The notes beneath the pieces are model-generated. The model was not told the DNA's origin. It did no database searches and saw only the letters and a list, made by a program, of their open reading frames with translations. A stretch of 64,000 bases of DNA, taken from Candidatus Methylacidiphilales bacterium (GTDB taxonomy: Bacteria; Verrucomicrobiota; Verrucomicrobiia; Methylacidiphilales; UBA1321). Shown in pieces: positions 1 through 57,962 of this stretch. Within the stretch, counting starts at the first letter, position 1. Each line of letters starts with the position of its first letter. Position numbers and translations under genes: made by a program. The DNA is taken from positions 4,541-68,540 of the forward strand of contig DASZIP010000022.1 of the NCBI GenBank assembly GCA_035948935.1, given 5' to 3'.

Positions 1-762
1 AATCCAGAGGACGTAGCTGGCGAACGTCTGGTTGTGCCAGGTGGCGAGAAAAGGGAGGACGGTCCAGCCGTGATCGACCTGATACTGCACGACGTCGGAG
101 AGGCGCAGGTTGCCCATGACGAGGAAGATGGGGATGACGGAGAGGCCCATGGAGACTTCGTAGGAGATCATTTGCGCGCTGGAGCGGATGCCGCCGAGGA
201 AGGGGTACTTGGAGTTGGAGGACCAGCCGGCCAGGACGATGCCGTAGACGCTGAGCGAGGCGATGGCGAAAACCAGGAGGACGCCGATGCCGACGTCGGC
301 GATGACGCCGGGCGATTTCATCGTGTAGTTGAAAAAGGGGAGGGTGATGTCGTGCGTGCTGGAAAACGGAATGACGCAGATGGTGAGGAGCGCCGGGACC
401 ATGGCCATGGCGGGGGCCATCCAGAAATAGAGCTTGTTGACGTGGGCGGGGGTGAATTCCTCCTTGAGCATGAACTTGAGCGCGTCGGCGAGCGGCTGGC
501 CGAGGCCCCACCAGGTCCACTTCGGCATGGTGAAGAGGCCGAGGATGTTGACGCCGCCGAGCGGAATGCCGACGCGGTTCGGGCCGATGCGGTCCTGGAT
601 CGCGGCGCTGATCCGGCGCTCGGCCATGACGGTGTAGGAGACGAGGCCGAGGATGACGTTGACCAGGACGAAGATTTTGATGAGCGAAACGAAAACGTCG
701 GGCACCCAAAGCGGGATGCTGGCGGGCAGGTCGGCGAAGAGGAGGGGAGGGGAATTAGACAT
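1..762 (-). CDS. nuoH: NADH-quinone oxidoreductase subunit H, partial (C-terminus runs off the window)
   Basis: Hand translation of the minus strand from ATG at 760-762 gives MSNSPPLLFADLP...YTVMAERRISAAIQDRIGPNRVG...SSNSKYPFLGGIRSSAQMISYEVSMG, typical NuoH motifs. It is absent from the ORF track because no stop lies in the window. It is last in a co-oriented nuoB-G series. Confidence 0.9.
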   Translation of the reverse strand, partial: MSNSPPLLFADLPASIPLWVPDVFVSLIKIFVLVNVILGLVSYTVMAERRISAAIQDRIGPNRVGIPLGGVNILGLFTMPKWTWWGLGQPLADALKFMLKEEFTPAHVNKLYFWMAPAMAMVPALLTICVIPFSSTHDITLPFFNYTMKSPGVIADVGIGVLLVFAIASLSVYGIVLAGWSSNSKYPFLGGIRSSAQMISYEVSMGLSVIPIFLVMGNLRLSDVVQYQVDHGWTVLPFLATWHNQTFASYVLWI

Positions 763-1077
763 GAGGAACATGAAGGACATGAGGATGGTTAAGGCAAGGC
801 TTGCCCCAATTTTCTTTCACAACGAGGGCGCACGAAGCGGGCAAAACGCGGAGCGATGATGAAACAGGCTGTAGAAAACAATGTGAGGATCAAAACGTAT
901 ACAAGAAGAAGTTGTCCTTGTTCTGAGTTTTCTATATGGGTCACATGAGCCTCATGGAGCGAATAAAGCACTGCCGCTGCCACAGCGGCAAAATTAAGTC
1001 CGAAGATGGGAAAGACGATCAGGGTGACTAACTCAAAACAGTCTGCCTTTTTCATGTGCTTCATGTTCCTCATGTCT
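757..1077. repeat. Inverted-repeat bracket (ACATGA-word family) around the 94-aa ORF
   Basis: 757-785 AGACATGAGGAACATGAAGGACATGAGGA matches the reverse complement of 1053-1077, AGACATGAGGAACATGAAGCACATG (24/25 by hand). The arms overlap the nuoH start (760-762), the small-ORF start (1071-1073) and the nuoG stop (1076-1078). Confidence 0.85.
789..1073 (-). CDS. hypothetical small membrane protein (94 aa, two hydrophobic helices)
   Basis: Track ORF MRNMKHMKKADCFELVTLIVFPIFGLNFAAVAAAVLYSL... fills the visibly AT-rich nuoG|nuoH spacer. Its start codon lies inside an inverted-repeat arm. I recognise no family. Confidence 0.4.
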   Translation of the reverse strand: MRNMKHMKKADCFELVTLIVFPIFGLNFAAVAAAVLYSLHEAHVTHIENSEQGQLLLVYVLILTLFSTACFIIAPRFARFVRPRCERKLGQALP

Positions 1078-2785
1078 AAACCGCAACTTGTGCTGATTGG
1101 CCAAGTTTCAAGTCGATGCCGAGGTCGCCGATTTTGCTGAGACTGAGACCGGCGAAGGCGGGGCTGGCTTCGGCCATGGCCTTGAAGACTTCCTCGATGG
1201 TGTGGATGCCGTTGCCGCCGCCGAGCGCCGCTTTGAGCTGGAGGAGAATCTGCCAGTCGTCCATGGCCTGGCCGGGGGGAGGGATCGCCTTGTTGAGGCG
1301 CTGGAGCCGTCCCGTGCCGTTGATCATCGAGCCCCGCTTTTCAGCGAAGCTGGCGCCGGGCAGGACGTAATCGGCGAGTTTCGAGGTGGGGCAGGGGAGG
1401 ATCGATTGGACGGCGAGCACTTTCACCTTTTGCAAGGTGGCCAGGGGCCAGCCGGCGTCGCCCATCAGATTTTCATGGAGGACGAAGAGCGACTGGATGC
1501 GGCCCGTTTCGATGCCGTGCCGGATTTGAGCGAGGGTTTTGCCCTGGTCGGAAAGCCCGAAAATTTCGAGGCCGTTGGTGTTGGGGTTGAGGTCGGCGCT
1601 GCGAAGGATGCCGTCGGCCTTGCCGAGACGGGGGACGATGTCGGTGAGGACCGCTTCGCCGCCGAGGAGCTGGCGGATTTCGCCGAGGAGAAAAGCTTCT
1701 TCGTTGGTGAGGCGGCCCGAGGCGACGATGGCGATCTGGTTGGGTTGAAATTCGCGCAATTGCGAGGCGAGGCGGGGGATGATTTCGCTCCAGGGCGTCG
1801 CAAGTTTGCCGTGGCCGACCCTGGCGACTGGTTCGGTGAACCGTTCGGGACTGTGGATATAATGGAAGCCGAGCCGGCCCTGGTCGCACATCCATTCCGA
1901 GTTGACCGCCTCGTTGCCGCGGGGGGTCTGGCGATAAACGAGTCCTTCGCGGCTGCCGACGATCGTGTTGCAGCCGGTGGCGCAGCCGGTGCAGATGCTT
2001 TTGGTTTCCTTGAGGAACCAGACACGCATCTGAAACCGGAAATCCTTGCTGGTGAGGGCGCCGACGGGGCAGATGTCGACGGTGTTGAGCGAGTAATTAT
2101 TGTCGAGCCGCTTGCCGGGATGGACGGCGAGGGTGGTGTGGCTGCCGCGGTCGATGAAGCCGAGAACATCGTCGTCGACCATTTCCTTCGAGAAACGGAT
2201 GCAGCGCGAGCACATGATGCAGCGTTCGTCGTCGAGGACGATCCGCTCGCCGATGTCGACCCGCTTCGGTTTCTTCACCTTCTCGTCGGTGAATCGGCTC
2301 CCCTCGTGGCCGTACTGGACGGAGTATTCCTGGAGCTTGCATTCGCCGGCCTGGTCGCAGATGGGGCAGTCGAGCGGGTGGTTGATGAGGAGAAATTCCA
2401 TGACGCCCTTGCGGCACTCGTCGACGAGGGGCGATTCGGTGCGGATGCCCATGCCTTCGGCGACGAGCGTGGCGCAGCCGATCTGCGGGCGGGGCATCCA
2501 GGAAATTTCGGGTTTGCCGTCGACGGCGAGGACGGGTTTGCGCTGGGCGTCGAGCTTGGGCATGCCGAGTTCGATCAGGCACATGCGGCAGTTGCCGGAG
2601 ATGGAGAGCTTGGGGTGGTAGCAGTAGTGCGGGACGAATTTCGCGGCGCGGCGGGCGGCTTCAACGGCGTTGAGGCCCTTGGGAAATTTCATCCAGACGC
2701 CGTCGACCTGCACGTTGAGGAGCGGGGCGTCGGCGGGCGTGTGGTCGTGGTCGAACGGATTTTTCATAAGCTCAGGATGACCCAT
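1076..2785 (-). CDS. nuoG: NADH-quinone oxidoreductase subunit G
   Basis: 569-aa ORF with N-terminal 2Fe-2S/4Fe-4S cysteine clusters (CYHPKLSISGNCRMCLIE, HPLDCPICDQAGECKLQ, CIMCSRCIRF) and a molybdopterin-like C-terminal half. An alternative ATG start lies at 2765-2767 (MKNPF...). Confidence 0.92.
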   Translation of the reverse strand: MGHPELMKNPFDHDHTPADAPLLNVQVDGVWMKFPKGLNAVEAARRAAKFVPHYCYHPKLSISGNCRMCLIELGMPKLDAQRKPVLAVDGKPEISWMPRPQIGCATLVAEGMGIRTESPLVDECRKGVMEFLLINHPLDCPICDQAGECKLQEYSVQYGHEGSRFTDEKVKKPKRVDIGERIVLDDERCIMCSRCIRFSKEMVDDDVLGFIDRGSHTTLAVHPGKRLDNNYSLNTVDICPVGALTSKDFRFQMRVWFLKETKSICTGCATGCNTIVGSREGLVYRQTPRGNEAVNSEWMCDQGRLGFHYIHSPERFTEPVARVGHGKLATPWSEIIPRLASQLREFQPNQIAIVASGRLTNEEAFLLGEIRQLLGGEAVLTDIVPRLGKADGILRSADLNPNTNGLEIFGLSDQGKTLAQIRHGIETGRIQSLFVLHENLMGDAGWPLATLQKVKVLAVQSILPCPTSKLADYVLPGASFAEKRGSMINGTGRLQRLNKAIPPPGQAMDDWQILLQLKAALGGGNGIHTIEEVFKAMAEASPAFAGLSLSKIGDLGIDLKLGQSAQVAV

Positions 2786-2829
2786 GCGCCGGGCCGTGGA
2801 AGACCCGGCGCAAAGGTTTTCAGACCGGC

Positions 2830-2970
2830 TTAGGAATTCGGCTTGACCGGTTCCGGAGCTGGTGGGGGCGGCGCCGCCGGCGGGGGAGTGTTATCCGAGC
2901 AGGCGGAGACGAGCGCGGCTGACAGGGTCACCGCGCAGATGAGTGCGAAGAGTTTCAGGTATGACTTCAT
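2830..2970 (-). CDS. putative small lipoprotein (46 aa)
   Basis: Hand-translated sequence, below the track size cut-off: MKSYLKLFALICAVTLSAALVSACSDNTPPPAAPPPPAPEPVKPNS. It has a signal peptide plus lipobox (VSAC) and a Pro-rich tail. It occupies the nuoF|nuoG spacer. Confidence 0.45.
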   Translation of the reverse strand: MKSYLKLFALICAVTLSAALVSACSDNTPPPAAPPPPAPEPVKPNS

Positions 2971-3058
2971 AGGTTTATTTCCGACTTTGGTTTGGGTTAG
3001 ACTTACAAGCGTTTATGTTAGCGGGAAGTTGGCGCGGGGCAAGGCTCCGGCTGATTTT

Positions 3059-4444
3059 TTAGGCGTGCTCCAGTTTCGTTTCGGGCGCGGAGGCCGGTTT
3101 TTTGGAGACGGTCGAGCCGTTGCCGAGGGCGCGGCTTTCAAATTCGTCCCTGAATTTTTCGACGAAACTCTGCACCGGCCATGCGCAGGCTTCGCCGAAG
3201 GCGCAGATGGTCCTGCCCGCGATGTTGTCGGCGACGTTGGTAAGCAGGGTGACGTCGTCGGGATGGCCGCGACCGGCGGAGAGGCGGCCGGTGACTTTCT
3301 TCATCCAGAGCGAGCCTTCGCGGCAGGGCGTGCACTGGCCGCACGATTCGTGGGCGTAGAACGTGGCGATGTTGGCCAGGCATTCGACCATGTCGCGGGT
3401 TTCGTCCATGACGATGACGCCGCCGCTGCCGGCCATCGAGCCGGCCGCGGCGAGGGTGTCGAAATCGAGCGGGATGTCCTCCAGGCCGAGATCCTTTTCC
3501 TCGATCGTGCCGTCGGGTTTCTTCGTCTTGATTTTGTAGCGGTCGCCGGCCTTCATCACCTTGGCCGAGGAGCCGCCGGGGATGAGCGCCTTGAGTTTGC
3601 GGCCGCCCTTGATGCCGCCGCAGACATCGTTGAGGAGCTGGCCGATGGTGAGCGCTCCGACTTCAAATTCGTAGTAGCCCGGTTTTTCGACATCGCCGCT
3701 GACGCAGAGGAGCCGCGTGCCGGTGTTGTTGGGCCTGCCGAGCTTCGCATAGGCCGCACCGCCCATCGCGACGATGTGCTTGATGTTGCACAGCGTCTCG
3801 ACGTTGTTGACGATGGTGGGGCACATGTAGAGGCCGAGGACGGCGGGGAAGTAGGGGGGCTTGATGCGCGGGTAGGGGCGCTTGCCTTCGAGCGATTCGA
3901 TGAGGCCCGTTTCCTCGCCGCAGATGTAGGCGCCGGCGCCGCGATGGACGTAAATTTCAAGGTCGAAGGCGGAGCCGCAGATTTTTTTGCCGAGGAAGTT
4001 TTTCGCCTTCGCCTCGGCGATGGCCTTTTCGAGGATTTTCGCGCCGAGGGTGAATTCGCCGCGGATATAGATGTAGGCGAGGTGGACGTTGTTGGCGTAG
4101 CAGGCGATGATCATGCCCTCGATCATCTGGTGCGGGTCCTTGTAGATGATCTGCTTGTCCTTGAAGGTGCCGGGCTCCGATTCGTCGGCGTTGCAGATGA
4201 GGTAGACGGGCTTGGTGTTTTTGGCGGGATCGATGAAGCCCCACTTGGTTCCGCAGGGAAATCCCGCGCCGCCGCGTCCGCGCAGGCCGGAGGCCTTGAC
4301 CTCGGCGACGATGTCGGGGCCGCGCATGGTGAGGGCTTTCTTGAGCTCCTTGTAACCGCCGTGGCGGAGGTAGCAATCGATGTCGATGGTGTACCCGGGC
4401 TGGTCGATGTTTTTGAAGATGAGTCTGTTTTCAGCGATGGGCAT
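3059..4444 (-). CDS. nuoF: NADH-quinone oxidoreductase subunit F
   Basis: MPIAENRLIFKNIDQPGYT...GLRGRGGAGFPCGTKW (FMN/NADH site)...ESCGQCTPCREG (4Fe-4S). The track ORF begins at 4465. The internal ATG at 4442-4444 fits homologue length better. Confidence 0.95.
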   Translation of the reverse strand: MPIAENRLIFKNIDQPGYTIDIDCYLRHGGYKELKKALTMRGPDIVAEVKASGLRGRGGAGFPCGTKWGFIDPAKNTKPVYLICNADESEPGTFKDKQIIYKDPHQMIEGMIIACYANNVHLAYIYIRGEFTLGAKILEKAIAEAKAKNFLGKKICGSAFDLEIYVHRGAGAYICGEETGLIESLEGKRPYPRIKPPYFPAVLGLYMCPTIVNNVETLCNIKHIVAMGGAAYAKLGRPNNTGTRLLCVSGDVEKPGYYEFEVGALTIGQLLNDVCGGIKGGRKLKALIPGGSSAKVMKAGDRYKIKTKKPDGTIEEKDLGLEDIPLDFDTLAAAGSMAGSGGVIVMDETRDMVECLANIATFYAHESCGQCTPCREGSLWMKKVTGRLSAGRGHPDDVTLLTNVADNIAGRTICAFGEACAWPVQSFVEKFRDEFESRALGNGSTVSKKPASAPETKLEHA

Positions 4445-4460
4445 AAGCGGATGGCGGAAG

Positions 4461-4976
4461 ACCAAATTACCAAATTTACTAAATTACCAAATTATTTAAG
4501 AAATAACCTCGAAGTTTAAGTGTGGAGGTTGGGCGGTTCTTGTTTTTTCTGGTAGTGAAGCGTTTTAGTTCGAAATTCCATGCTTGTGGCGCCGAAATTA
4601 ATTAAAAGCCCTTCCTCTATTTTCGTGACAGCCAGATAATTGATGAGTTGGGCTGCGTGGGCCGATGTCAAAGTTTCCACGGCTTTGAGTTCAACGATTA
4701 ACTTTTTTTCGATGATTATATCCGCCTGAAAAACTCCGACCTCGGTTCCCTCGTACATCACCGAAAGGATCGGGTGGCATTTAAAAGAGATATTTGCTTT
4801 GCGCAACTCGATAACCAAGGCGTTCCTGTACACGGTCTCAACAAACCCGCAGCCGAGTGTGCGATGAACTTTCATGGCTAGGCCGACAATCTGTTGTGCC
4901 AGCAAGTCGTGCGGTTGTTGCGTGGCAAATACCCTATTTTTCATTTGGTAATTTGGTTAATTTGGAAATTTGGTTA
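4461..4976. repeat. Inverted-repeat bracket (CCAAATT-word family) around GxxExxY gene 1
   Basis: 4461-4495 ACCAAATTACCAAATTTACTAAATTACCAAATTAT matches the reverse complement of 4943-4976, TAACCAAATTTCCAAATTAACCAAATTACCAAAT (29/32 over the aligned core, by hand). The outer edges touch the nuoF start (4442-4444) and the nuoE stop (4974-4976). A third, solo copy of the word family lies at 62437-62479. Confidence 0.8.
4516..4944 (-). CDS. GxxExxY family protein (PD-(D/E)XK nuclease-fold, function unknown)
   Basis: 142 aa with the signature GFVETVY, followed by ...DIIIEKKLIVELKAV...LINYL...GLLINFG. This is the typical TIGR04256/PDDEXK_3 pattern. It is a paralogue of the genes at 7546-7956 and 9125-9559. 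Confidence 0.85.
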   Translation of the reverse strand: MKNRVFATQQPHDLLAQQIVGLAMKVHRTLGCGFVETVYRNALVIELRKANISFKCHPILSVMYEGTEVGVFQADIIIEKKLIVELKAVETLTSAHAAQLINYLAVTKIEEGLLINFGATSMEFRTKTLHYQKKQEPPNLHT

Positions 4977-5561
4977 TGCAGTGTATTTCAAAAGAAGCTC
5001 GTCGGCGCGGGAGCGGGTGACGTTTTCGTAGAAGTCGTCGTTGATCATGATGACGGGCGCGGTGCCGCAGGCGGCGAGGCATTCGACGAACTCGACCGAG
5101 TATTTGCCGTCGGGGCTGAGGGCGAGGCCGTGCGGGTCCGGTTCGGCGGTCTTGCATTTTTCGCGGAAGTAATCGCAGAGCGCGTAGCCGCCGCCGAGGG
5201 CGCACGAGAGCGTGCGGCAGACTTTGATCTGGATTTTGCCCGCCGGATGCTGCCGGAACATCGGGTAGAAGGTGACGAGTTCGAGGATGTTGATCGGTTG
5301 CAGGCCGAGTTTGGCGGCGATCCATTCGATGCCTTCGGGCGAGATGTAGCCTAAGGTCTCCTGCCAGAGATGGAGCAGCGGCAGCGACGCGCTCCGTTTC
5401 GAGACGGGGTAATGGGTGATCAGTTCATCGGCCTGAGCTTCGAAGCCGTTGGGCAGCGCGGGCGTGGGATGATGAGGCTCGACCGCGCCGGGATAGACCG
5501 CCTCGGGCGGGATCGTTTGCGTGGCGGGATCGACGACGGGGCTGAGGCTTTTGGAGGTCAT
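4974..5561 (-). CDS. nuoE: NADH-quinone oxidoreductase subunit E
   Basis: MTSKSLSP...VSKRSASLPLLHLWQETLGYISPEGIEWIAAKLGL...IQIKVCRTLSCALGG...VECLAACGTAPVIMIND (2Fe-2S thioredoxin-like fold). The start is the internal ATG at 5559-5561. It overlaps the stop of the upstream lipoprotein gene by 3 nt (5559-5561 versus 5558-5560). Confidence 0.9.
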   Translation of the reverse strand: MTSKSLSPVVDPATQTIPPEAVYPGAVEPHHPTPALPNGFEAQADELITHYPVSKRSASLPLLHLWQETLGYISPEGIEWIAAKLGLQPINILELVTFYPMFRQHPAGKIQIKVCRTLSCALGGGYALCDYFREKCKTAEPDPHGLALSPDGKYSVEFVECLAACGTAPVIMINDDFYENVTRSRADELLLKYTA

Positions 5562-5827
5562 GATTTGGCTCCGGAAACGAATTCGGCTTTGAAGACGGTA
5601 CCATTGAGGAAGATGACGCGGCCTTCGCCGCCCCATCCGGGATAGTGATCGACCTCGCCGCTGATGGTCTGATCGGCGGTTTGGGATTGTTCAATGCGGG
5701 CAGGGCGGCCGAGAATGGCTTCAACCTGGTCCTGGCTCATGGCGGGTTTGATCTGCGCGATTTTATCGGGGGTGACGGAGGAGGTGCAGGCGGCCAGCGC
5801 GCAAGCGCTTCCTAATAGGGTTGTCAT
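5558..5827 (-). CDS. small lipoprotein, BamE/SmpA_OmlA-like (89 aa)
   Basis: MTTLLGSACALAACTSSVTPDKIAQIKPAMSQDQVEAILGRP...VIFLNGTVFKAEF has a lipobox (LAAC) and the K-x-GM-x(4)-V-x(2)-ILG-x-P pattern of SmpA_OmlA-type lipoproteins. The 5' part of track ORF 5558-5983 is rejected as non-coding. Confidence 0.6.
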   Translation of the reverse strand: MTTLLGSACALAACTSSVTPDKIAQIKPAMSQDQVEAILGRPARIEQSQTADQTISGEVDHYPGWGGEGRVIFLNGTVFKAEFVSGAKS

Positions 5828-5920
5828 CCTGAGCTTGTCGAAGGATCTCTTGCCATTTGTCCATGACAAGCCGCTCCGGGCAGAATAGTTAGAGGTCCCT
5901 CGACAGGCTCGGGATGACGA
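5822..5920. repeat. Miniature inverted-repeat element of the GTCATCCTGAGC family
   Basis: 5822-5846 TGTCATCCTGAGCTTGTCGAAGGAT pairs with 5896-5920 TCCCTCGACAGGCTCGGGATGACGA. The arms belong to the same word family as those around the GIY-YIG remnant at 24452-24744. A solo arm lies at 2768-2783. Confidence 0.75.
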
Positions 5921-5979
5921 TCTTTTATTAAAATCGCTTTCGCGAGCCGTTGCCATGTGCGCAGATGCCATCTGAGAGA

Positions 5980-6249
5980 TCATTTGAAATCCCCCTGCGT
6001 GGCGATCACCTTGTCGTCGAGGAAGGTGATTTTGACGTCGGATGTGTCGGTGTGATAGGTATAGGTCGTGCCGGTAATACCGAGTGCTCCGCCGGTTTGC
6101 GAGCTGGTCGGGTCGCCGAGAATCTCTTTCACTTCCACGGTCGTCATCCCGTTGTGGATTTTTTGGAGATTGTCCTCGGTGAGCCTGGAGCAGGCGGTGA
6201 CCAGGAGAAGGGCGGCAATGGCAAGGAGCGTTGTGTGGATGGTTTTCAT
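5980..6249 (-). CDS. small lipoprotein, BamE/SmpA_OmlA-like (89 aa), paralogue of 5558-5827
   Basis: MKTIHTTLLAIAALLLVTACSRLTEDNLQKIHNGMTTVEVKEILGDP...VKITFLDDKVIATQGDFK. This is the 3' end of the otherwise spurious track ORF 5980-7167. It matches its neighbour in length and architecture. Confidence 0.6.
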   Translation of the reverse strand: MKTIHTTLLAIAALLLVTACSRLTEDNLQKIHNGMTTVEVKEILGDPTSSQTGGALGITGTTYTYHTDTSDVKITFLDDKVIATQGDFK

Positions 6250-6254
6250 GATGG

Positions 6255-7505
6255 TTACCGGTCGCATTCTCCCATGACGAAATCGAGGCTGCCGAGAATC
6301 GCGACGACGTCGCTCATCATGTGGCCGGGCAGGAGTTTTCCCAGGATGCTGAGGTTGACGAAGGAGGGCGCGCGGATTTTGAGGCGATAGGGCACGCCGC
6401 CGCCCTTGCTCTGGATGTAGAAGCCGAGTTCGCCCTTCGGGTTTTCGGCGCCGAAGTAGACTTCGCCCACGGGCGCCTGGATGCCCTCGGTGACGAGGAT
6501 GAATTGGTGGATGAGTTCCTCCATTTTGGTGAGGACCTTCTCCTTGTGCGGAAGAAAACCCTTGCCGTCGCCGACGTTGATCGGTCCGCCGGGGAGCGTG
6601 TTGAGCGTCTGCTCGATGATATGGACGCTCTGGCGCAATTCCTCGAGGCGGCAGAGGTAGCGGTCGTAGGCGTCGCCGACGGAGCCGAGCGGCACCGAGA
6701 AGCCGTACTCGGAATAAGTGAGGTAGGGCCGGGCCTTGCGGACGTCGTAGTTGACGCCGCTGCCGCGAAGGTTCGGGCCGGTGAGGCCGAAGTCGATGGC
6801 GTCCTCCTTCGAGATAATGCCGACGCCCTGGTTGCGATCGACGAAAATTTTGTTGCGGGTGAGGAGCGTGTCGAACTCGTCGATCTTGCCCTTGAACTGC
6901 TCGGCAAACGCCTTGCACTGGTCGGTCCAGCCCGGAGGCAGGTCGCGGATCTGGCCGCCGACGCGGGTGTAGCTGGTGGTGAAGCGGGCACCGGTGAGCG
7001 ATTCGATCAGGTTGTAGATTTTTTCGCGCTCGGTGAAGGCGTAGAGGAAAAAGGTCATGGCGCCGGTGTCCATCGCCAACGCGCCCATGCCGAGCAGATG
7101 CGCGGAGATGCGGGCCAGCTCGCAACAGATGACGCGGATGACCTGGCCGCGCGGCGGGACGGTCCACCCCATGAGCTTTTCAACGGCGAGGGCGTAGGCG
7201 ACGTTGTTGGCCAGCGGGGCGAGGTAGTCGAGGCGGTCGGTGTAGGGGACGAACTGGTTGTAGGTCATGTTCTCGGCGATTTTTTCGTCGCCGCGGTGGA
7301 GATAGCCGATGTCGGGCACGGCCTTGGTGACGATTTCGCCGTCGAGTTCGAGCAGGATGCGCAGGACGCCGTGGGTGCTCGGATGGGAGGGTCCCATGTT
7401 GAGGATGAGCTTTTCGCCCAGAGGCCCGGTCTCGGCCTGCGCCTGCTCAAGCTGCCGCGCGGCGCGCGCCACGCTGTCGGGTGTTTCTAGAATGGTCTCA
7501 GGCAT
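6255..7505 (-). CDS. nuoD: NADH-quinone oxidoreductase subunit D
   Basis: MPETILETP...LILNMGPSHPSTHGVLRILLELDGE...YLHRGDEKIAE...GECDR at the C-terminus. The start is the internal ATG at 7503-7505. Confidence 0.95.
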   Translation of the reverse strand: MPETILETPDSVARAARQLEQAQAETGPLGEKLILNMGPSHPSTHGVLRILLELDGEIVTKAVPDIGYLHRGDEKIAENMTYNQFVPYTDRLDYLAPLANNVAYALAVEKLMGWTVPPRGQVIRVICCELARISAHLLGMGALAMDTGAMTFFLYAFTEREKIYNLIESLTGARFTTSYTRVGGQIRDLPPGWTDQCKAFAEQFKGKIDEFDTLLTRNKIFVDRNQGVGIISKEDAIDFGLTGPNLRGSGVNYDVRKARPYLTYSEYGFSVPLGSVGDAYDRYLCRLEELRQSVHIIEQTLNTLPGGPINVGDGKGFLPHKEKVLTKMEELIHQFILVTEGIQAPVGEVYFGAENPKGELGFYIQSKGGGVPYRLKIRAPSFVNLSILGKLLPGHMMSDVVAILGSLDFVMGECDR

Positions 7506-7514
7506 ATGCGAAAA

Positions 7515-8004
7515 AATTTTGACGAAATTAACGGAATGGACGGAATTACTGCTGAAGATTGGGAGGCTCCGGCATTCCGGGATGAAGCCGGGTCTTGGTT
7601 TTAAATTCAAGTTTTCTCGGGCCGAAATTCAGCAGCAGGCCAAGATCGATCTTGGAAATGGCGAGATAATTCACCAACTGTACGGAATGAGCGATGGCCA
7701 ATGAATCAACGGCCTTGGCTTCAACTATCAGACGGTTATCGATGACTAAATCGGCGATATAGCATCCGATTTCCATATTTCGGTAGGTGACCGTAAAGCG
7801 TTTCTGACGTTCATACGGAATGCGGGCCTCTTTCAATTCAACGATGAGGCCGCCAACGTAGAGAGACTCCAAAAGCCCACAACCAAGGTTATTATAAACA
7901 TCCATGGCGAGGCCGATGATTCGTTTGGCCAACTGCTGATCCGTATCGTTCTGCATTTGGAGTCTGTTAATCATTCCGTAAATTCCGTTAATTCCGTCAA
8001 AATT
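7515..8004. repeat. Inverted-repeat bracket (TTTTGACGGAATTAACGG-word family) around GxxExxY gene 2
   Basis: 7515-7549 AATTTTGACGAAATTAACGGAATGGACGGAATTAC matches the reverse complement of 7966-8004, AATTTTGACGGAATTAACGGAATTTACGGAATGATTAAC (29/32 by hand). The edges lie 9 nt from the nuoD start and 4 nt from the nuoC stop (8009-8011). Confidence 0.85.
7546..7956 (-). CDS. GxxExxY family protein (PD-(D/E)XK nuclease-fold)
   Basis: MQNDTDQQLAKRIIGLAMDVYNNLGCGLLESLY...DLVIDNRLIVEAKAV...LVNYL...GLLLNFG with the signature GLLESLY. The start is the internal ATG at 7954-7956. The longer track ORF to 8058 would read through the repeat arm and the nuoC 3' end. Confidence 0.85.
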   Translation of the reverse strand: MQNDTDQQLAKRIIGLAMDVYNNLGCGLLESLYVGGLIVELKEARIPYERQKRFTVTYRNMEIGCYIADLVIDNRLIVEAKAVDSLAIAHSVQLVNYLAISKIDLGLLLNFGPRKLEFKTKTRLHPGMPEPPNLQQ

Positions 8005-8008
8005 CAGT

Positions 8009-8617
8009 TCAGTGTTCGGCGGGGTTGGCGCGGGGTTCGCGGATCGTCGTGGGCGCATCGCCGATGGCCGGCGGCTTGTCGGTGGGCAGGGCGACGTAGG
8101 GTCCGCCTTCCATCGGCGCGCGACGCGAAAATCCTTCTTCGCCCGGCAGGTCGCTCGGCAGGCCTTCGAGGGGAAAATCTTTCTTGAGCGGATGGAACGG
8201 ATAGCCGTCCCACATGAGGATGCGGCGCAGGTCGGGATGGCCCGCGAAGGTGATGCCCATCATGTCGAAAATCTCGCGTTCGTGCCAATCGGCGCCCTGG
8301 AAGACGGGCACGATGGAATCGACGGAGGGGTCGTCCTCGCTGACCTTGAGCTTGACGCGCAGGTGCGCCAGGTTATTCGGGCCGCCGAGCGCGCAGAATT
8401 CGTAGACGACTTCGTAACGGGGCTCGTCGCCGAAATGGTCAACGCTCGTGATGTCGAGGAGGAGGTTGAAGCCGAGTTCGTTTTTGAGATGGGCGGCGGC
8501 GGCTCGGACGATCTCGCGGTCGATCTCGACGACCTGCTCGTCGCGAAATTCCTTCCCTTGCCCGACCTTGCCGGGAAATTGCTTTTGCAGGGAGGCGATG
8601 GCGTCAGCGGCGGGCAT
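8009..8617 (-). CDS. nuoC: NADH-quinone oxidoreductase subunit C
   Basis: 202 aa with ...ITSVDHFGDEPRYEVVYEF...VFQGADWHEREIFDMMGITFAGHPDLRRILM, typical of the NuoC/30-kDa subunit. Confidence 0.95.
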   Translation of the reverse strand: MPAADAIASLQKQFPGKVGQGKEFRDEQVVEIDREIVRAAAAHLKNELGFNLLLDITSVDHFGDEPRYEVVYEFCALGGPNNLAHLRVKLKVSEDDPSVDSIVPVFQGADWHEREIFDMMGITFAGHPDLRRILMWDGYPFHPLKKDFPLEGLPSDLPGEEGFSRRAPMEGGPYVALPTDKPPAIGDAPTTIREPRANPAEH

Positions 8618-8623
8618 GGGAAA

Positions 8624-8666
8624 GAATTTTGACGGGATTAGGGAAGGCAGACGGAATTAACGGAAC
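8624..8666. repeat. TTTTGACGG-word array (left bracket of the nuoB|nuoC insert)
   Basis: GAATTTTGACGGGATTAGGGAAGGCAGACGGAATTAACGGAACG is the same family and orientation as 7515-7549. A weak inverted partner lies at 9566-9580 (reverse complement ...TTTTAACAGGAAAAC). Other copies lie at 10697-10730 and 23271-23296. Confidence 0.7.
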
Positions 8667-9072
8667 GTTGCGGAGGGCGTGCGGCTGCCCAGGTCATAGC
8701 GAGGAAGCCGAGGAAAGGTATGGCCACAGATGGGAGTAATCCTAGCAGCGATGGATTGGTGCTGATTGCGGGCAGTATACTAATTAATCCTGTAGTCATC
8801 TCCCAAGCGGCAATGCTTAGAAGAAGACCTGAGAAAATCCCGAGACAGATTCGGACAACGTTACGCGAAAGATGAAAAGAGCCGAATATCCATGTTGAAA
8901 AGCTAAAAAATATACATATATCCTTCCAACTGCTGTTATAGAATTGGCCTATGTGAGAAGGAAAGCTGCTCAGAAAAACTGTTCCGAAAAGCAATATCAC
9001 AAGACAACCAAAAATCCGTGCAGTCCAAAGCATCACATGATCGAGCATTTGGAGCGCTTTCATGGTGGTCAT
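8638..9072 (-). CDS. hypothetical integral membrane protein (144 aa, about 4 TM)
   Basis: MTTMKALQMLDHVMLWTARIFGCLVILLFGTVFL...LGFLAMTWAAA lies in a visibly AT-rich stretch. The start is the ATG at 9070-9072, because the longer track ORF would overlap the next gene. I recognise no family. Confidence 0.45.
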   Translation of the reverse strand: MTTMKALQMLDHVMLWTARIFGCLVILLFGTVFLSSFPSHIGQFYNSSWKDICIFFSFSTWIFGSFHLSRNVVRICLGIFSGLLLSIAAWEMTTGLISILPAISTNPSLLGLLPSVAIPFLGFLAMTWAAARPPQRSVNSVCLP

Positions 9073-9124
9073 GCTTGTGGGAGGGTGCAGGCAGATTTTA
9101 ACAGGAAGACATGAAGGGAAGGAA

Positions 9125-9559
9125 TCAAGCTTCATGAAGGCGGAGGTCCGGATCGATGAGGGGCCGGTTGCGGTATTTGCGCTTAATTTGGAGCGGCGCT
9201 GTGCCAAAGTTGAGAATGAGGCCGACATCGAGACCGGATGCCTTGAGATAATTGACCGCCTGTACCTCCGCGCTAAGGGGCAGAAGTTCGAGAGCTTTTA
9301 ATTCCAAAAGCAGCCGCCCTTCGATGATGAGATCGGCGGTAAAATTGCCCACGACCCGGCCATGATAGGAAACGGTCAACGGAGCTTCGCTGACAAAATT
9401 CACCCCCCCTTCGGCCAGCTCAATTTCCAACGCGCGGTGGTAGATCGATTCGACAAAACCGGTGCCAAGCTCCGTATGAACCTTGATGGCCAGGCCAATC
9501 ACCTTGGAACTCAGCGGATCGTCCTCCCCGTGATTCCCATTTCGGTTCATGTATTTCAT
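9125..9559 (-). CDS. GxxExxY family protein (PD-(D/E)XK nuclease-fold)
   Basis: 144 aa with the signature GFVESIY, then ...DLIIEGRLLLELKAL...AVNYL...GLILNFG. This is the third paralogue within the nuo operon. Confidence 0.85.
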   Translation of the reverse strand: MKYMNRNGNHGEDDPLSSKVIGLAIKVHTELGTGFVESIYHRALEIELAEGGVNFVSEAPLTVSYHGRVVGNFTADLIIEGRLLLELKALELLPLSAEVQAVNYLKASGLDVGLILNFGTAPLQIKRKYRNRPLIDPDLRLHEA

Positions 9560-9581
9560 GTTTTCCTGTTAAAAAGGTTCT

Positions 9582-10112
9582 TTATGCCACGAGCGTGCTG
9601 GCGGGCGGGAGTTGTTTCAGGCCGACCGTGGAGCGATCGAGCATGATTTTGTTCTGGAGGCGCATCAGGCCCTCCAGCAGCGCTTCGGGGCGGGGCGGGC
9701 AGCCGGAAATATAAACATCCACCGGAATGATCTGGTCGACCCCCTGCAGGACCGCATAGCTCCGATACATCCCGCCAGTTGAGGCGCAGGCGCCCATGGC
9801 GATGCACCATCTCGGTTCGGGCATCTGGTCCCAGATGCGCTTGCAGGAAAGGGCCATCTTATAAGTGACCGTCCCGGCGACGATGAGCAGGTCGCTCTGG
9901 CGTGGGGAGAAGCGCATCACTTCCGCGCCGAACCGGGCGATGTCGAACCTCGCGCAGGAGGCGGCCATCAGTTCGATCGCGCAGCAGGCGAGGCCCATCG
10001 GCATCGGCCAGAGCGAGTTCTTCCGCATCCAATTGATCGAGGCGTCGAGCGTCGTGAGAACGACGTTGCCTTCGACCTTGGAGTTGTAGGAGAGGTCGCG
10101 TCCGTGGACCAT
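9582..10112 (-). CDS. nuoB: NADH-quinone oxidoreductase subunit B
   Basis: [10 protein letters not shown]...[15 protein letters not shown]...[13 protein letters not shown]...MGACASTGG...[13 protein letters not shown] (N2 cluster cysteines). The start is the internal ATG at 10110-10112. No nuoA lies upstream. Confidence 0.95.
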
Positions 10113-10222
10113 ATGAGGAAACGATAGGCGGCGCGAAGAGACCGGCAAGGCGAATTGTAAGAAAAAGATGGCAGCGACGGCAGGTGCTGCGCACGGCAGC
10201 TATTGCCGTCCCATTCGTTTTT

Positions 10223-10250
10223 GGAGCGCGAAGGGACTCGCGTCCCTACC
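10223..10250. repeat. GGGACGCGA-hairpin extragenic repeat, copy 1
   Basis: GGAGCGCGAAGGGACTCGCGTCCCTACC is the reverse complement of the copy at 54432-54459 except for a few bases. A further 15 nt of flanking similarity follow (TGCCGTCC...). A partial third copy lies at 27515-27529. Confidence 0.75.
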
Positions 10251-10271
10251 GTCGCTTCGGTAAAATGCCGC

Positions 10272-10646
10272 ATGGTGCAGAAAGGTTTTATCGCGGTTTT
10301 CGAGGCGACGCTCGCACGGGCCGGGATTTCGGAATGTGTCGCGTCGTGGCTGGAGCGCTTCGAAAAAATCGAGCAGGTGATCCCCGGAATGGGCGGCACG
10401 CTCGAGGTGAAGGACCCGCGAGAGATCATGTGGGAGCCGAACCTGCAATTCCGCGTCCTCAACGGCGAACAATTCGCCTGGGTCTACGCGTCGCTCGGCA
10501 AACGCGCCATGGAAACGACCGGCTTTCAGGACGCCGAAATTTCCCTTTGCCTCGAAGTCCTCCTCGAACTGCCCGGCGTTGCCGAGGTGATCGACGAGAA
10601 GAACCAGCGTCGGCTCGAGGAACTCGAGAAGTCCGGGATTATTTAA
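10272..10646 (+). CDS. hypothetical protein (124 aa)
   Basis: ORF MVQKGFIAVFEATLARAGISECVASWLERFEKIEQ...EKSGII has a protein-like composition. I recognise no family. The 5' part of the track ORF overlaps a repeat, so it is trimmed to the ATG at 10272. Confidence 0.5.
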   Translation: MVQKGFIAVFEATLARAGISECVASWLERFEKIEQVIPGMGGTLEVKDPREIMWEPNLQFRVLNGEQFAWVYASLGKRAMETTGFQDAEISLCLEVLLELPGVAEVIDEKNQRRLEELEKSGII

Positions 10647-10704
10647 TGTAGCGGCGGTCGGAGCCTGTCCTGAGCGGAGCCGAAGGAACCGTCGCTGAAT
10701 TTTT
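10647..10704 (+). terminator. TGTAGCGGCGGTC-family hairpin element plus T-run, directly after a stop codon
   Basis: The element starts on the base after TAA (10644-10646). Arm AGCGGCGGT (10650-10658) pairs with ACCGTCGCT (10688-10696), leaving a 29-nt loop. The hairpin is followed by GAATTTTT. Related copies lie at 31325-31350 and 31451-31499. Confidence 0.35.
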
Positions 10705-10763
10705 GACGGAATGCGTGTAAATTCGGTAAGGTGCGGACAGGATCAACCTGCACCACGTCCATT

Positions 10764-20911: not shown

Positions 20912-20934
20912 GAGAGGCTCCTTTCTTTCAAAGA

Positions 20935-21012
20935 GGTAGCCGTCGCACTCCGTGCGACGGTTCGCGGCGTCCATCCATGGAAGACACCGTCGCACGGAGT
21001 GCGACGGCTACC
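20935..21012. repeat. Perfect 26-nt inverted repeat, each arm itself a hairpin
   Basis: GGTAGCCGTCGCACTCCGTGCGACGG (20935-20960) is the exact reverse complement of 20987-21012, with a 26-nt spacer between them. Each arm contains CCGTCGCAC-nnn-GTGCGACGG. The element lies between the tldD stop and the pmbA start. Confidence 0.9.
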
Positions 21013-21020
21013 TAAAAGCA

Positions 21021-23156: not shown

Positions 23157-23170
23157 GAGCTACAGAATTT

Positions 23171-57942: not shown

Positions 57943-57962
57943 AAATAATCAGGGAATCAGGG

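Follow-up and report, generated by a model that had tools for sequence, protein, structure and literature searches.

Two probable classes of insert, inverted-repeat cassettes and resident lipoprotein genes, in a verrucomicrobial nuo cluster

The extra genes between the nuo cistrons described here probably belong to two unrelated classes, inverted-repeat cassettes and resident lipoprotein genes, a reading to which we assign a probability of about 0.6. The first class comprises three genes for GxxExxY-family proteins (Gx1, Gx2 and Gx3) and one for a 2-TM protein (TM2), plus TM4 in a decayed form; these would be mobile or selfish cassettes. Lip1, Lip2 and Lip46 form the second class, and the lack of nuoA and nuoI-N would be a separate matter. 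The window, that is, the whole 64-kb stretch of DNA analysed, comes from a lineage of peat-bog Verrucomicrobiota whose MAGs are labelled 'Methylacidiphilales'. An ORF listing together with Pfam/NCBIfam scans bore out the original prediction that all six nuoB-to-nuoH junctions (B-C to G-H below) carry extra ORFs. The nuo genes and inserts all lie on the minus strand of the window, and their arrangement is identical in four independent metagenome assemblies (L001-L004), which rules out an assembly artefact. The features are as follows.

1-780, minus strand: 5' part of nuoH (start ~780), NADHdh E 9e-57; last cluster gene, cut by the window edge
755-1079, minus strand: TM2 cassette; 5' arm 1052-1079 (TTAGACATGAGGAACATGAAGCACATGA), 2-TM ORF 789-1064, 3' arm 755-782
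1076-2767, minus strand: nuoG; Fer4_Nqo3, NADH-G_4Fe-4S_3 and Molybdopterin domains
2830-2970, minus strand: Lip46, 46-aa lipoprotein, lipobox LVSAC, proline-rich mature peptide
3059-4444, minus strand: nuoF, Complex1_51K E 9e-48
4461-4974, minus strand: Gx3 cassette; 5' arm 4943-4974, GxxExxY ORF 4516-4944, 3' arm 4461-4492
4974-5561, minus strand: nuoE, 2Fe-2S_thioredx E 5e-41
5558-5827, minus strand: Lip2, 89-aa BamE-like lipoprotein, lipobox ALAAC, Pfam BamE E 6e-6
5824-5918, minus strand: hairpin element from another repeat family (GTCATCCCGAGC...GCTCAGGATGAC), an insertion separating Lip1 from Lip2; RNA fold z = -3.8
5980-6249, minus strand: Lip1, 89-aa BamE/SmpA-like lipoprotein, lipobox LLVTAC, Pfam BamE E 6e-6
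6255-7505, minus strand: nuoD, Complex1_49kDa E 6e-113
7515-8004, minus strand: Gx2 cassette; 5' arm 7973-8004 (AATTTTGACGGAATTAACGGAATTTACGGAAT), GxxExxY ORF 7546-7956 (alternative start 7974), 3' arm 7515-7546
8009-8617, minus strand: nuoC, Complex1_30kDa E 9e-40
8625-8665, minus strand: solo right-arm sequences (TTCCGTTAATTCCGTC...CCCGTCAAAATT), read from the sequence, directly upstream of the nuoC start and overlapping the TM4 C-terminus
8638-9072, minus strand: TM4, 144-aa multi-TM ORF at B-C
9096-9574, minus strand: Gx1 cassette; 5' arm 9555-9574, GxxExxY ORF 9125-9559, 3' arm 9096-9115
9582-10112, minus strand: nuoB, Pfam Oxidored_q6 E 7e-28; first cluster gene
10690-10715, no strand assigned: solo arm (ATTCCGTCAAAAATTCAG) upstream of the divergent gene
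23168-23256, no strand assigned: ORF-less mini-element of 89 nt in the accA-tadA junction; 30-nt arms (97%), 29-nt loop
~23268-23292, no strand assigned: solo ACAGGATT-type arm beside the mini-element in the accA-tadA junction (joint feature 23168-23292)

Each of the four inserts Gx1, Gx2, Gx3 and TM2 is framed exactly by an inverted repeat whose 20-32 nt arms are 91-96% complementary. This key structural feature was absent from the observations behind the original prediction. The arms consist of tandem 8-9 nt units and directly adjoin the stop codon upstream and the start codon downstream. The Gx1 arms (TTTTAACAGGAAAACATGAA, ACATGAA-unit type; 20 nt, 95% complementary) include the ORF start codon in the 5' arm, and the Gx2 repeat has 32 nt with 91% complementarity. 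In Gx3 (32 nt, 91%) the 5' arm is composed of four CCAAATT units, overlaps the nuoE stop and contains the Gx3 start, while the 3' arm ends 16 nt ahead of the nuoF ATG; the two arms are paired in its minimum-free-energy structure (z = -3.15). The TM2 arms (28 nt, 96%) overlap the nuoG stop on the 5' side, contain the nuoH start on the 3' side and also pair in the fold (z = -4.66); the ORF between them encodes 91-94 aa, depending on the start (789-1064 or 789-1073). Comparable inverted repeats are rare in the remaining 54 kb, where one of the few is the mini-element of the same family. All three GxxExxY genes of the 64 kb lie within the nuo region of 9.4 kb. Inserts of the first class are AT-rich, with a GC3 of 0.46-0.63 versus 0.81-0.92 in nuo (Gx1 0.63 versus nuoB 0.84; TM2 0.48; TM4 0.46).

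The cassette architecture recurs in 15 related genomes. All 25 occupied cassettes tabulated from the window and 12 related genomes have arms of 20-43 nt, with 720 of 775 arm positions forming Watson-Crick pairs; a Gx cassette in L165 has 42-nt arms that are 88% complementary. The left and right arms of one cassette agree at 92-93%, whereas a left arm compared with the right arms of orthologous cassettes reaches only 67-68%, and pairwise comparisons gave 130 two-sided compensatory differences versus 111 one-sided ones. The cassettes are ~0.3-0.5 kb long, sit exactly between cistrons and are always oriented like the host operon. Their outer termini are common across copies (CTGAATTTTGAC...GTCAAAATTCAG), and the arm units are of the ACGGAATT, ACAGGATT, ACATGAAnn and CCAAATT types. 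The usual cargo is a GxxExxY-family protein of ~140 aa; TM2, TM4, a TM-anchored variant of Lip2 and a CPCC protein are also carried. Across ~1.3 Mb of related loci, GxxExxY matches are confined to nuo junctions and are all on the nuo strand. No such inverted repeats flank the GxxExxY genes of phage contigs (27-47% identity), so the architecture is not family-wide.

Comparison of the copies has shown that the arms and their ORF behave as a single unit, both in movement and in replacement. The window copy at C-D combines a protein of the E-F clade with E-F-type (ACGGAATT) arms, whereas other C-D cassettes have ACAGGATT arms; the placement of Gx2 in the E-F rather than the C-D protein clade thus implies replacement or duplication. 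At E-F in L213, a ACAGGATT-type mini adjoins an ACGGAAT remnant. ORF-deleted minis are found at C-D in L007 and at E-F in L006 and L012, as well as at 23168-23256 of the window, and solo-arm footprints mark 'empty' junctions in L005, L011, L014 and L015. Among relatives the first-class inserts are variably present, with footprints and ORF-less derivatives at the same junctions, and genomes lacking Gx are nested among Gx-bearing ones in a NuoC, NuoD, NuoE and NuoF tree. No target-site duplication could be defined from the junctions of relatives and the metagenome elements. Gx copies group mainly by junction, so their history is mostly vertical and few independent insertions are documented. The original prediction that the operon is a landing pad for small cassettes stands for Gx1-3, TM2 and the older, decayed TM4, on the strength of inverted repeats, foreign composition, variable presence and footprints.

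The same repeat family occurs outside nuo. Besides the elements at accA-tadA (names assigned by inspecting the proteins rather than by a family-library scan), a Gx gene of 59% identity, flanked by 43-nt ACGGAATT arms, lies between two genes of an RND-pump operon. A metagenome scan yielded 17 paired elements, the majority of them ORF-less minis (94-205 nt), together with ~60 unpaired motif matches, many of which are solo arms, often just 5' of a start codon. Among 80 metagenome loci fetched by arm motif, which include some chance matches, only one had a Gx gene nearby, in another nuoE-nuoF cassette. A link in trans between nuclease and arms is a conjecture.

TM4 is older, decayed cassette cargo. 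The TM4 start (MKAL/MKVL...) in L006 and L016 immediately follows a left arm, TTTT(T)[AG]ACAGGAAAACATGAA, and the solo right arm ahead of nuoC is present in most insert-bearing relatives (L005-L008, L010 and L016; decayed in L015). TM4 was also considered as a NuoA candidate and rejected; a PDB profile search returned no complex I chain and Pfam no Oxidored_q4.

The three lipoprotein genes are, by their sequence evolution, resident operon genes, vertically inherited under purifying selection. Lip2 is present in 12 of 12 relatives (L005-L016) as a lipoprotein or TM-anchored variant with a conserved VYHYP...VF(L/V)NG.VF motif, Lip46 in 11 of 12 at 55-79% and Lip1, by tblastn, in 10 of 12; L012 and L015 have a divergent small ORF at the Lip1 position. 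BamE-like genes are also found at D-E in L085, L089 and L213. The best 120 of 192 Lip1 homologues have identities of 69-85%, a level of conservation close to that of NuoC. The lipoprotein genes have nuo-like dS and omega of 0.1-0.4 (dN/dS 0.08-0.31 for Lip1, 0.24-0.44 for Lip2 and 0.11-0.24 for Lip46), and Lip46, with a GC of 0.64, has no flanking inverted repeat. The Lip1 start is 8 nt past the nuoD stop, and Lip2 ends in an ATGA overlap with the start of nuoE. Both genes are, judging from these junctions, tightly or translationally coupled to their neighbours. The hairpin between them gave a sub-threshold Rfam match on both strands; in its place the two genes overlap in L009, L011, L014 and L089.

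The lipoproteins, perhaps with TM4 and TM2, could instead be lineage-specific accessory or assembly subunits of complex I, whose position in the operon would provide stoichiometric co-expression. We hold this as a tentative alternative. Conservation, host-like dS and the tight junctions with nuoD and nuoE speak for it, as does the fact that TM4 is a real family (~22 full-length homologue clusters, 26-47% identity, conserved MKALPMLDHVMLW and RPPQ motifs). However, export to the periplasm is likely for all three lipoproteins, but the nuoB-G products make up the peripheral arm of complex I in the cytoplasm; we know of no link between the BamE/OsmE-like fold and complex I. The nuoBCDEFG cluster of L084 lacks the lipoproteins; L009, L012 and L013 have no TM4, and the L016 copy carries an internal deletion; and a Lip2 variant is cassette-borne in L008 and L010. 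TM2 is cassette cargo confined to two species; its sole homologue occupies the corresponding junction of L213, with 81% identity. The accessory role originally proposed for lipoproteins and TM proteins is reasonable for the three lipoproteins only. These are possibly complex I accessories, with a function that is perhaps unrelated to complex I.

It is unlikely that the inverted repeats are host RNA elements, such as intercistronic processing or stabilising stems or translational-control hairpins, which set differential expression of the nuo cistrons and carry their ORFs incidentally. The arms do adjoin stop and start codons and mask the start of the cassette ORF, long-range stems occur in minimum-free-energy folds (z -3.2 to -4.7), and MITE hairpins in transcripts are cleaved by RNase III, modulating expression (PMC10969869; PMC2649163). 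Nevertheless, armless, contiguous junctions work in the close relatives L011, L014 and L015, and purifying selection acts on the Gx ORFs. Unrelated operons have the sequence-specific termini and the tandem units in common, which points to a mobile DNA element. The non-Watson-Crick positions comprise 10 G.U and 15 A.C, with no wobble bias on the sense strand, and whole tandem units change together; it therefore seems to be at the DNA level that complementarity is maintained, which does not by itself demonstrate selection for an RNA stem.

The Gx proteins are predicted to have a PD-(D/E)XK fold, nearest to Cas4 and lambda exonuclease. Matches to PDDEXK_3 are strong for Gx1 (E 1e-33; TIGR04256 E 1e-34), Gx2 (Pfam E 1.5e-35; E 1e-36 across the Pfam/NCBIfam scans) and Gx3 (E 1e-37 and 1e-38, respectively), and an AlphaFold2 model of Gx3 (pLDDT 87) has Cas4 SSO0001 as its best PDB match. 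Residues E36, D75, E85 and K87 are invariant. Omega is 0.08-0.3 where measurable and dS is very high, which may stem partly from strong codon bias lowering the nuo dS rather than from cassette turnover. Selection acts on the protein, which looks catalytically intact and would be a minimal PD-(D/E)XK nuclease, its activity and target being inferred. Domestication of this protein by the host, for instance as an RNA or DNA endonuclease for nuo mRNA maturation or for repair of the region, would agree with the retention of intact, strictly co-oriented ORFs, their catalytic residues conserved, at the same junctions in many species. It is nonetheless improbable, given repeated loss of Gx without replacement (L011, L014, L015 and L213), a frameshifted or truncated copy in L005, foreign base composition and the same cassette type in the RND-pump operon. 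Frameshift-split nuo genes in L005 and L016, typical of long-read consensus errors, and L170, a perfect palindrome of 243 nt that is probably an assembly artefact, might suggest chimeric contigs or spurious ORFs in long spacers, but this explanation is effectively refuted by the four identical assemblies, homologous cassettes in more than 15 genomes, strong Pfam matches and measurable purifying selection.

The reported absence of nuoA upstream of nuoB holds throughout the 64 kb, where tblastn with two NuoA sequences gave no match and no 3-TM ORF had a [YF]E[CSA]G motif. NuoB (176 aa as called in L001) lacks an N-terminal TM extension, and a divergent gene starts upstream at ~10271. Beyond the window edge, in L001, nuoH is followed by an oppositely oriented TP_methylase gene; the cluster thus comprises nuoB-H alone, and nuoI-N are missing as well. 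The absence of nuoA is not a peculiarity of this operon but a wider verrucomicrobial gene-order trait. The clean nuoBCDEFG cluster of the Verrucomicrobiales MAG L084 also begins with nuoB; on detailed reading, nuoB likewise comes first in the Chthoniobacterales MAG L050, where nuoB-nuoC stand alone, and nuoC lacks a following nuoD in ~65 other Chthoniobacterales-type loci. The absence of nuoA and nuoI-N reflects the scattering of nuo genes across the phylum and is not caused by the inserts.

If the cassettes are mobile, the nuclease could drive their insertion or retention, either by homing-like cuts in unoccupied junctions or by structure- or sequence-specific cuts at the arms, and the ORF-less and other-cargo copies would be non-autonomous relatives. 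Pairing of the transcribed 20-43 bp arms would loop out the cassette, mask its start codon and bring the flanking stop and start together. The cassettes resemble 23S rRNA intervening sequences in their long terminal inverted repeat and tandem units. The Coxiella example has 428 nt with a 28-bp terminal inverted-repeat stem and tandem heptamers (GACAGAT) ahead of the start of its ORF; RNase III excises it (PMC4990558). The paired arms would likewise form a canonical RNase III substrate, and by such pairing and cleavage an essential operon may tolerate the cassettes. The two alternatives of the original prediction, a landing pad for cassettes and a set of accessory factors, would both hold, each for a different subset of the inserts.

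The nuo cluster of the window starts with nuoB, and nuoC, nuoD, nuoE, nuoF, nuoG and the 5' part of nuoH follow on the same (minus) strand, each with the expected Pfam domains. All six junctions between nuoB and nuoH are expanded, each by 294-967 nt. The original prediction that every one of these junctions carries extra open reading frames (ORFs) was confirmed, down to the same ORFs. An identical gene arrangement is found in four independent assemblies, including one 437-kb contig.

nuoB and the genes found in the nuo junctions (window coordinates; B|C stands for nuoB|nuoC, and so on)
9582-10112, minus strand: nuoB, with its Pfam domain
9125-9559, minus strand: Gx1, GxxExxY (PDDEXK_3) gene at B|C
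8638-9072, minus strand: TM4, 144-aa multi-TM protein at B|C
7546-7956, minus strand: Gx2, GxxExxY gene at C|D
5980-6249, minus strand: Lip1, 89-aa BamE-like lipoprotein at D|E
5558-5827, minus strand: Lip2, 89-aa BamE-like lipoprotein at D|E
4516-4944, minus strand: Gx3, GxxExxY gene at E|F
2830-2970, minus strand: Lip46, 46-aa lipoprotein at F|G
789-1064, minus strand: TM2, 91-94-aa protein with two TM segments at G|H

Compared to the canonical 14-gene nuoA-N operon, the window keeps the order, orientation and normal domain content of nuoB-C-D-E-F-G-H, but nuoA and nuoI-N are not adjacent and all junctions are expanded. The reported absence of nuoA upstream of nuoB is true as an observation. 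As a weak test, E. coli NuoA and T. thermophilus Nqo7 were searched by tblastn, which returned only noise in the window and no NuoA-like sequence in 84 loci. A scan of the window found no ORF with the motif [YF]E[CSA]G and three TM segments, and NuoB has no fused TM segment. A TP_methylase gene lies on the opposite strand directly after nuoH and is followed by a gene for an FHA-domain protein (19108-19785 in L001, one of the four assemblies; window 1-780 is nuoH). Therefore, nuoI-N are also missing from the cluster and must lie elsewhere. In L084, a Verrucomicrobiales MAG, nuoBCDEFG is contiguous and an unrelated gene precedes nuoB. In L050, a Chthoniobacterales MAG, nuoB is again first, and nuoB-nuoC stand alone. 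About 65 other Chthoniobacterales-type loci have nuoC without nuoD after it. The scattered nuo layout is thus a wider trait of the phylum, and the absence of nuoA beside nuoB is an ordinary gene-order trait of the lineage, not peculiar to the window. Two genes are divergent from nuoB, both on the plus strand (10203-10646, 124-147 aa, and 10764-11321, 185 aa with three TM segments), and neither has a match in Pfam or NCBIfam.

The key structural feature of the junctions, missed in the original prediction, is a long inverted repeat that an inverted-repeat search found around each of Gx1, Gx2, Gx3 and TM2. An ORF between two such arms is called a cassette here, an ORF-less arm pair a mini, and a single unpaired arm a solo arm.

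Inverted-repeat arms of the cassettes in the window
9096-9115 / 9555-9574: Gx1 cassette, 20 nt, 95% complementary
7515-7546 / 7973-8004: Gx2 cassette, 32 nt, 91% complementary
4461-4492 / 4943-4974: Gx3 cassette, 32 nt, 91% complementary
755-782 / 1052-1079: TM2 cassette, 28 nt, 96% complementary

The arms are composed of tandem 8-9 nt units, ACATGAAnn, ACGGAATTn or CCAAATTn. The 5' arm starts at the stop codon of the upstream nuo gene or within about 12 nt of it, and the start codon of the cassette gene is inside the arm. Between the end of the 3' arm and the following start codon there are up to about 50 nt (12-16 nt at C|D and E|F); at G|H the nuoH start lies inside the arm. When whole cassettes are folded as RNA, the two arms come together in a long-range stem (z = -3.2 and -4.7). 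The cassettes are oriented with the operon and foreign in composition: GC3 is 0.46-0.63 for Gx1-3, TM2 and TM4, compared to 0.81-0.92 for the nuo genes and 0.67-0.74 for the lipoprotein genes. Comparable inverted repeats are rare in the remaining 54 kb of the window, and among the few is one of the same family. Known RNA families gave only sub-threshold matches in window 1-11000, and there was no rRNA match. Sigma-70 promoters and intrinsic terminators are not enriched, and none is found at the arms. No consistent direct repeat indicating a target-site duplication was found outside the arms, although the palindromic termini would mask a short AT-rich duplication.

Two other repeat structures were noticed in the window. 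Positions 56618-57985 contain nested long inverted repeats over about 1.3 kb (55 nt, 84%; 40 nt, 80%; 31 nt, 81%), which may be another mobile element. A perfect hairpin with 28-nt arms and a 24-nt loop (AGGTAGCCGTCGCACTCCGTGCGACGGT...) is located at 20934-21013.

Of the loci recovered in a genome scan with NuoC, 12 belong to the same clade (L005-L016), with NuoC 68-88% identical and the MAGs mostly labelled 'Methylacidiphilales'. The remaining 68 come from more distant Verrucomicrobiota, mostly Chthoniobacterales, and further loci were obtained by protein look-ups. Six-frame translations of about 1.3 Mb were searched with an HMM of the Gx proteins; every match was in a nuo cluster of the clade, at B|C, C|D or E|F, and on the nuo strand. 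There are three Gx copies in L008, two each in L009, L010 and L016, one each in L005 (frameshifted), L006, L007, L012 and L013, and none in L011, L014, L015 and L213. The Gx-free genomes are nested within the Gx-bearing ones in a tree calculated from NuoC, NuoD, NuoE and NuoF. Few independent cassette insertions are documented.

The arms stay complementary within each unit. In 25 occupied cassettes from the window and 12 related genomes, the arms are 20-43 nt long and form Watson-Crick pairs at 720 of 775 positions (93%). The Gx cassettes span 466-525 nt; that of L165, another of the fetched loci, has arms of 42 nt that are 88% complementary. Arm sequences at the same junction differ between species, yet within one cassette the two arms vary jointly: the match is 92-93% between a left arm and its own right arm, and only 67-68% when the right arm is taken from an orthologous cassette. 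In pairwise cassette comparisons there were 130 two-sided, compensatory differences versus 111 one-sided ones. The outer termini are conserved across arm types and loci, with the consensus CTGAATTTTGAC(A/G)GGA...TCC(T/C)GTCAAAATTCAG.

Whole units relocate, are replaced, and decay to minis and footprints. The type of arm tracks the clade of the Gx protein.

Arm units of the Gx protein clades
B|C protein clade: ACATGAA
Old C|D protein clade: ACAGGATT or ATAGGATT
E|F protein clade: ACGGAATT; CCAAATT in some lineages

The C|D copies in the window, L016 and L089 have a protein of the E|F clade and E|F-type arms, and the whole unit has therefore been replaced at, or duplicated into, C|D. Furthermore, an RND-pump gene pair encloses a Gx gene that is 59% identical and has ACGGAATT arms of 43 nt, in the order stop-arm-ORF-arm-start. 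At E|F of L213, an ORF-less mini of the ACAGGATT type adjoins an ACGGAAT remnant. Minis that retain both arms and have lost their interior are present at C|D of L007 (135 nt) and at E|F of L006 and L012, whereas C|D of L005 has a truncated Gx remnant with one arm. Solo-arm footprints mark 'empty' junctions, namely E|F in L005, L014 and L015, and C|D in L011. The high dS of the Gx genes may be due in part to codon bias in nuo; dS was rejected as proof of horizontal turnover because this bias is extreme.

A bias of non-Watson-Crick arm positions towards wobble pairs on the sense strand would be a sign of selection at the RNA level. It is absent, with 10 G.U versus 15 A.C. Tandem units also change as a whole and together. 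Both observations count against a purely RNA-level role of the arms; homogenisation or constraint of the arms therefore seems to act on the DNA.

The original prediction considered the operon either a landing pad for small cassettes or a host of complex I accessory factors, with the lipoproteins and the TM proteins as candidates for the latter. The landing pad holds for the GxxExxY genes, TM2 and TM4. The two TM proteins are cassette cargo, and an accessory role may hold only for the three lipoproteins. No flanking inverted repeat surrounds Lip1, Lip2 or Lip46 in the window. By tblastn, Lip2 is present in 12, Lip46 in 11 and Lip1 in 10 of the 12 relatives; in L012 and L015 a divergent small ORF occupies the position of Lip1. 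Lip1 homologs are 69-85% identical among the 120 matches listed. The lipoprotein genes either overlap nuoD and nuoE or lie a few nucleotides from them, and the Lip2 stop overlaps the nuoE start. The dN/dS comparison suggested for the inserts gave omega values of 0.1-0.4 for the lipoprotein genes, with dS similar to that of their nuo neighbors, and 0.08-0.3 for the Gx genes where measurable. The three lipoprotein genes are thus located and inherited together with nuo under purifying selection. They are resident, selected genes and candidate lineage-specific partners of complex I. The lipoproteins are predicted to be exported to the periplasm, whereas the nuoB-G products form the cytoplasmic arm. 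The second D|E protein of L008 (12796-13179) and L010 (13070-13463) is a TM-anchored variant of Lip2 inside a cassette with an ACATGAA-type inverted repeat. A gene type that is otherwise resident can thus also move as the cargo of a cassette or give way to such cargo.

A second, unrelated family of hairpin repeats, GTCATCC[CT]GAGC...GCTCAGGATGAC, which translates as ...SFDKLRMT..., lies between Lip1 and Lip2 (5824-5918), and the Lip2 start is inside its 3' arm. Related motifs are found at 2775-2790 before nuoG and at 24449-24467/24729-24747 near 24.5 kb. The family has a sub-threshold Rfam match on both strands (RF02901).

TM4 belongs to a genuine, fast-evolving family of about 22 clusters. 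It starts directly after a left arm in L006 and L016. At the other end, the ORFs run into the right arm, so that the C termini of the family are translated arm repeats (NSVNSV, NPVNLVNPV, LPQSC; window 8625-8665 and alignment). TM4 is absent from several relatives and dispensable there. The possibility that TM4 is a divergent NuoA was rejected for this reason and because a Pfam scan yielded no Oxidored_q4 match even at E <= 1; a profile of 20 TM4 homologs matched no complex I chain in the PDB. One other species has TM2, and its divergence there matches that of NuoG and NuoH. TM2 and TM4 have no match in Pfam, and the Gx ORFs match PDDEXK_3 only.

The accA|tadA junction of the window (genes named from their ORF sequences) contains an 89-nt ORF-less mini (23168-23256) with 30-nt arms, 97% complementary, of ACATGAA units, and a solo ACAGGATT-type arm follows it (23168-23292 in all). 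The repeat family therefore extends beyond nuo in this genome. When metagenomes were scanned with the arm motif, 80 loci were recovered, about 20 of them chance matches in unrelated coding sequence. There are 17 paired elements, mostly ORF-less minis of 94-205 nt, and many solo arms. Host junctions, identified from flanking ORF sequences, include ispG|alaS and nuoE|nuoF. A Gx gene is nearby in only one of the 80 loci, which is another nuoE|nuoF cassette. Solo arms are often arrayed directly before a start codon: arms of two or three types follow one another, with a TTCCCCTGCCTTCC-like spacer in between. Such right-arm arrays (L099, L105, L106, L122, L129, L136, L137, L149, L161 and L168) may be footprints that successive insertions have piled up, or may function as a 5' leader module. 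Solo arms also often precede a conserved motif, TTCAGCGACGGTCATAGACCGCCGCTACA, with a 10-bp stem and a 3-nt loop; it is found at window 10650-10715 (with a longer loop), in L094, L126, L144, L156 and L172, and at B|C of L011.

Cargo other than Gx comprises TM2, TM4, the TM-anchored Lip2 variant and two kinds carried by metagenomic cassettes with the same arms: a Cys_rich_CPCC protein (L116 57-497; E 2e-28) and an immunity ORF with a weak TriTu-like match (L112 105-496). Such families are classed as polymorphic-toxin immunity genes. Two candidate elements were discarded: L134, where different arm types surround truB, is not a real element, and the 243-nt perfect inverted repeat around the arm motif at 1713-2545 of L170 is probably a palindrome artefact of metagenome assembly.

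Gx1, Gx2 and Gx3 are the only GxxExxY genes within the 64 kb. They score 116-129 bits against PF13366 (Pfam cut-off 22) and 119-134 bits against TIGR04256 (NCBIfam cut-off 35). In an alignment of 25 sequences of the Gx3 family, E36 (the glutamate of GxxExxY), D75, E85 and K87 are invariant. These residues form the PD-(D/E)XK catalytic constellation E...D...E-x-K on the alpha-beta-beta-beta-alpha-beta core. The AlphaFold2 model of Gx3 (pLDDT 87) has a minimal PD-(D/E)XK fold; its nearest neighbors in the PDB, with TM scores of about 0.5, are Cas4 SSO0001 (the best), lambda exonuclease and MGME1, followed by the AdnAB nuclease domain, splicing endonucleases and Hjc. A sequence search found no solved structure for Gx3. 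The GxxExxY/PDDEXK_3 family is large and widespread, and its function is given as unknown (PMC3424549). Full-text searches with the family name and Pfam identifiers found no paper that assigns it one.

The intervening sequences (IVSs) of 23S rRNA in Coxiella burnetii, Leptospira and Salmonella are the closest described architecture. [quoted passage not shown] IVSs are suspected to have originated by transposition, and their origin and mobility have been a puzzle for more than 30 years (PMC4990558). IVSs and cassettes are both about 0.4-0.5 kb long, are enclosed by a long terminal stem (~28 bp in IVSs), contain in its loop one small, decay-prone ORF with short tandem repeats just upstream of its start, and are inserted in sense orientation into an essential, highly conserved transcription unit. 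However, the cassettes are located between protein-coding cistrons and not in helices 25 or 45 of 23S rRNA, and their ORF is a PD-(D/E)XK (GxxExxY) protein, unlike the four-helix S23p protein (PF05635) of IVSs. Furthermore, the cassette family includes minis, solo arms and other cargo.

Next closest are the MITEs Correia/CREE of Neisseria, ERIC, and Chunjie of Geobacter. Paired terminal repeats of Correia are cleaved by RNase III, and Chunjie lies within an operon that it leaves intact (PMC10969869; PMC2649163). Like the cassettes, these MITEs have terminal inverted repeats and many ORF-less copies, sit in intergenic or intra-operon sites and are transcribed with their neighbors. The cassette family is likewise multicopy with conserved ends (CTGAATTTTGAC/GTCAAAATTCAG). 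MITEs, however, derive from IS elements with DDE transposases and generate target-site duplications, none of which was found for the cassettes. The ORF-containing form of the cassette encodes a nuclease-fold protein, and the arms are tandem 8-9 nt units. No cognate autonomous element with a DDE, HUH or serine/tyrosine recombinase was found, the sole enzyme among the cargo being the ~140-aa PD-(D/E)XK protein.

In RAYT/REPIN systems, one small enzyme gene lies between inverted REPs, which also occur in many ORF-less hairpin doublets throughout the genome. The cassettes and minis have a similar organization. However, RAYT is an HUH/Y1 single-strand DNA transposase, whereas Gx has a PD-(D/E)XK fold, and there are several diverged Gx copies per operon compared to one RAYT per genome.

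The PD-(D/E)XK fold can act as a homing endonuclease, for example in I-Ssp6803I. Free-standing homing endonuclease genes, such as T4 seg and mob, are small nuclease genes of variable presence between conserved genes, and the Gx genes show the same presence/absence variation among relatives. The flanking inverted repeats and non-nuclease cargo of the cassettes, however, have no counterpart in them.

Integron cassettes are likewise short units with a single ORF and no promoter of their own; their small cargo is diverse and includes immunity-like genes, they are expressed from an upstream promoter, and they recombine at an imperfect inverted repeat. They have one attC per cassette, whereas the ORF described here has an arm on either side, the two being inverted copies, and the units are scattered through housekeeping operons instead of being arrayed. 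The genes called in L001 and the other loci include no integrase, and no attI site was seen.

A phage or defence origin was rejected, as PHROGs had no match for Gx, TM2 or TM4 and PADLOC returned nothing. Of the 40 arm-motif matches in viral contigs, L219 and L226 alone look genuine and nearly all the others arose by chance within coding repeats, and none of the five viral GxxExxY loci checked, of nine, has a long, well-matched flanking inverted repeat.

The cassettes are apparently selfish elements, an undescribed variant of the IVS-like or MITE-like kind. The Gx nuclease would mediate insertion or retention of the cassette. The transcribed arms would pair, and the duplex would loop out, or RNase III would cut, the cassette from the operon mRNA. 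A more specific reading, to which we assign a probability of roughly 0.35, is that GxxExxY genes and tandem-unit arms constitute an undescribed class of mobile elements, 'operon intervening sequences', of the same kind as 23S rRNA IVSs. Such elements would have homed or transposed into intercistronic junctions of conserved operons by means of a minimal PD-(D/E)XK nuclease, with the terminal stem neutralizing the insertion in RNA, either because RNase III excises the cassette or because the cassette is looped out.

For annotation, the clade's nuo clusters should be expected to contain passengers, and a 'missing nuoA' to reflect the gene order of the phylum. The nuo case illustrates how an essential, translationally coupled operon tolerates six insertions. 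The cassettes have a defined, repeatable architecture and supply the first concrete functional hypothesis for the GxxExxY family. If the same kind of element also sits between the cistrons of mRNA operons, the origin of 23S IVSs becomes testable. 'Operon intervening sequences', if they exist as proposed, would provide a mechanism for the origin and spread of IVSs and a first function for the large GxxExxY family.
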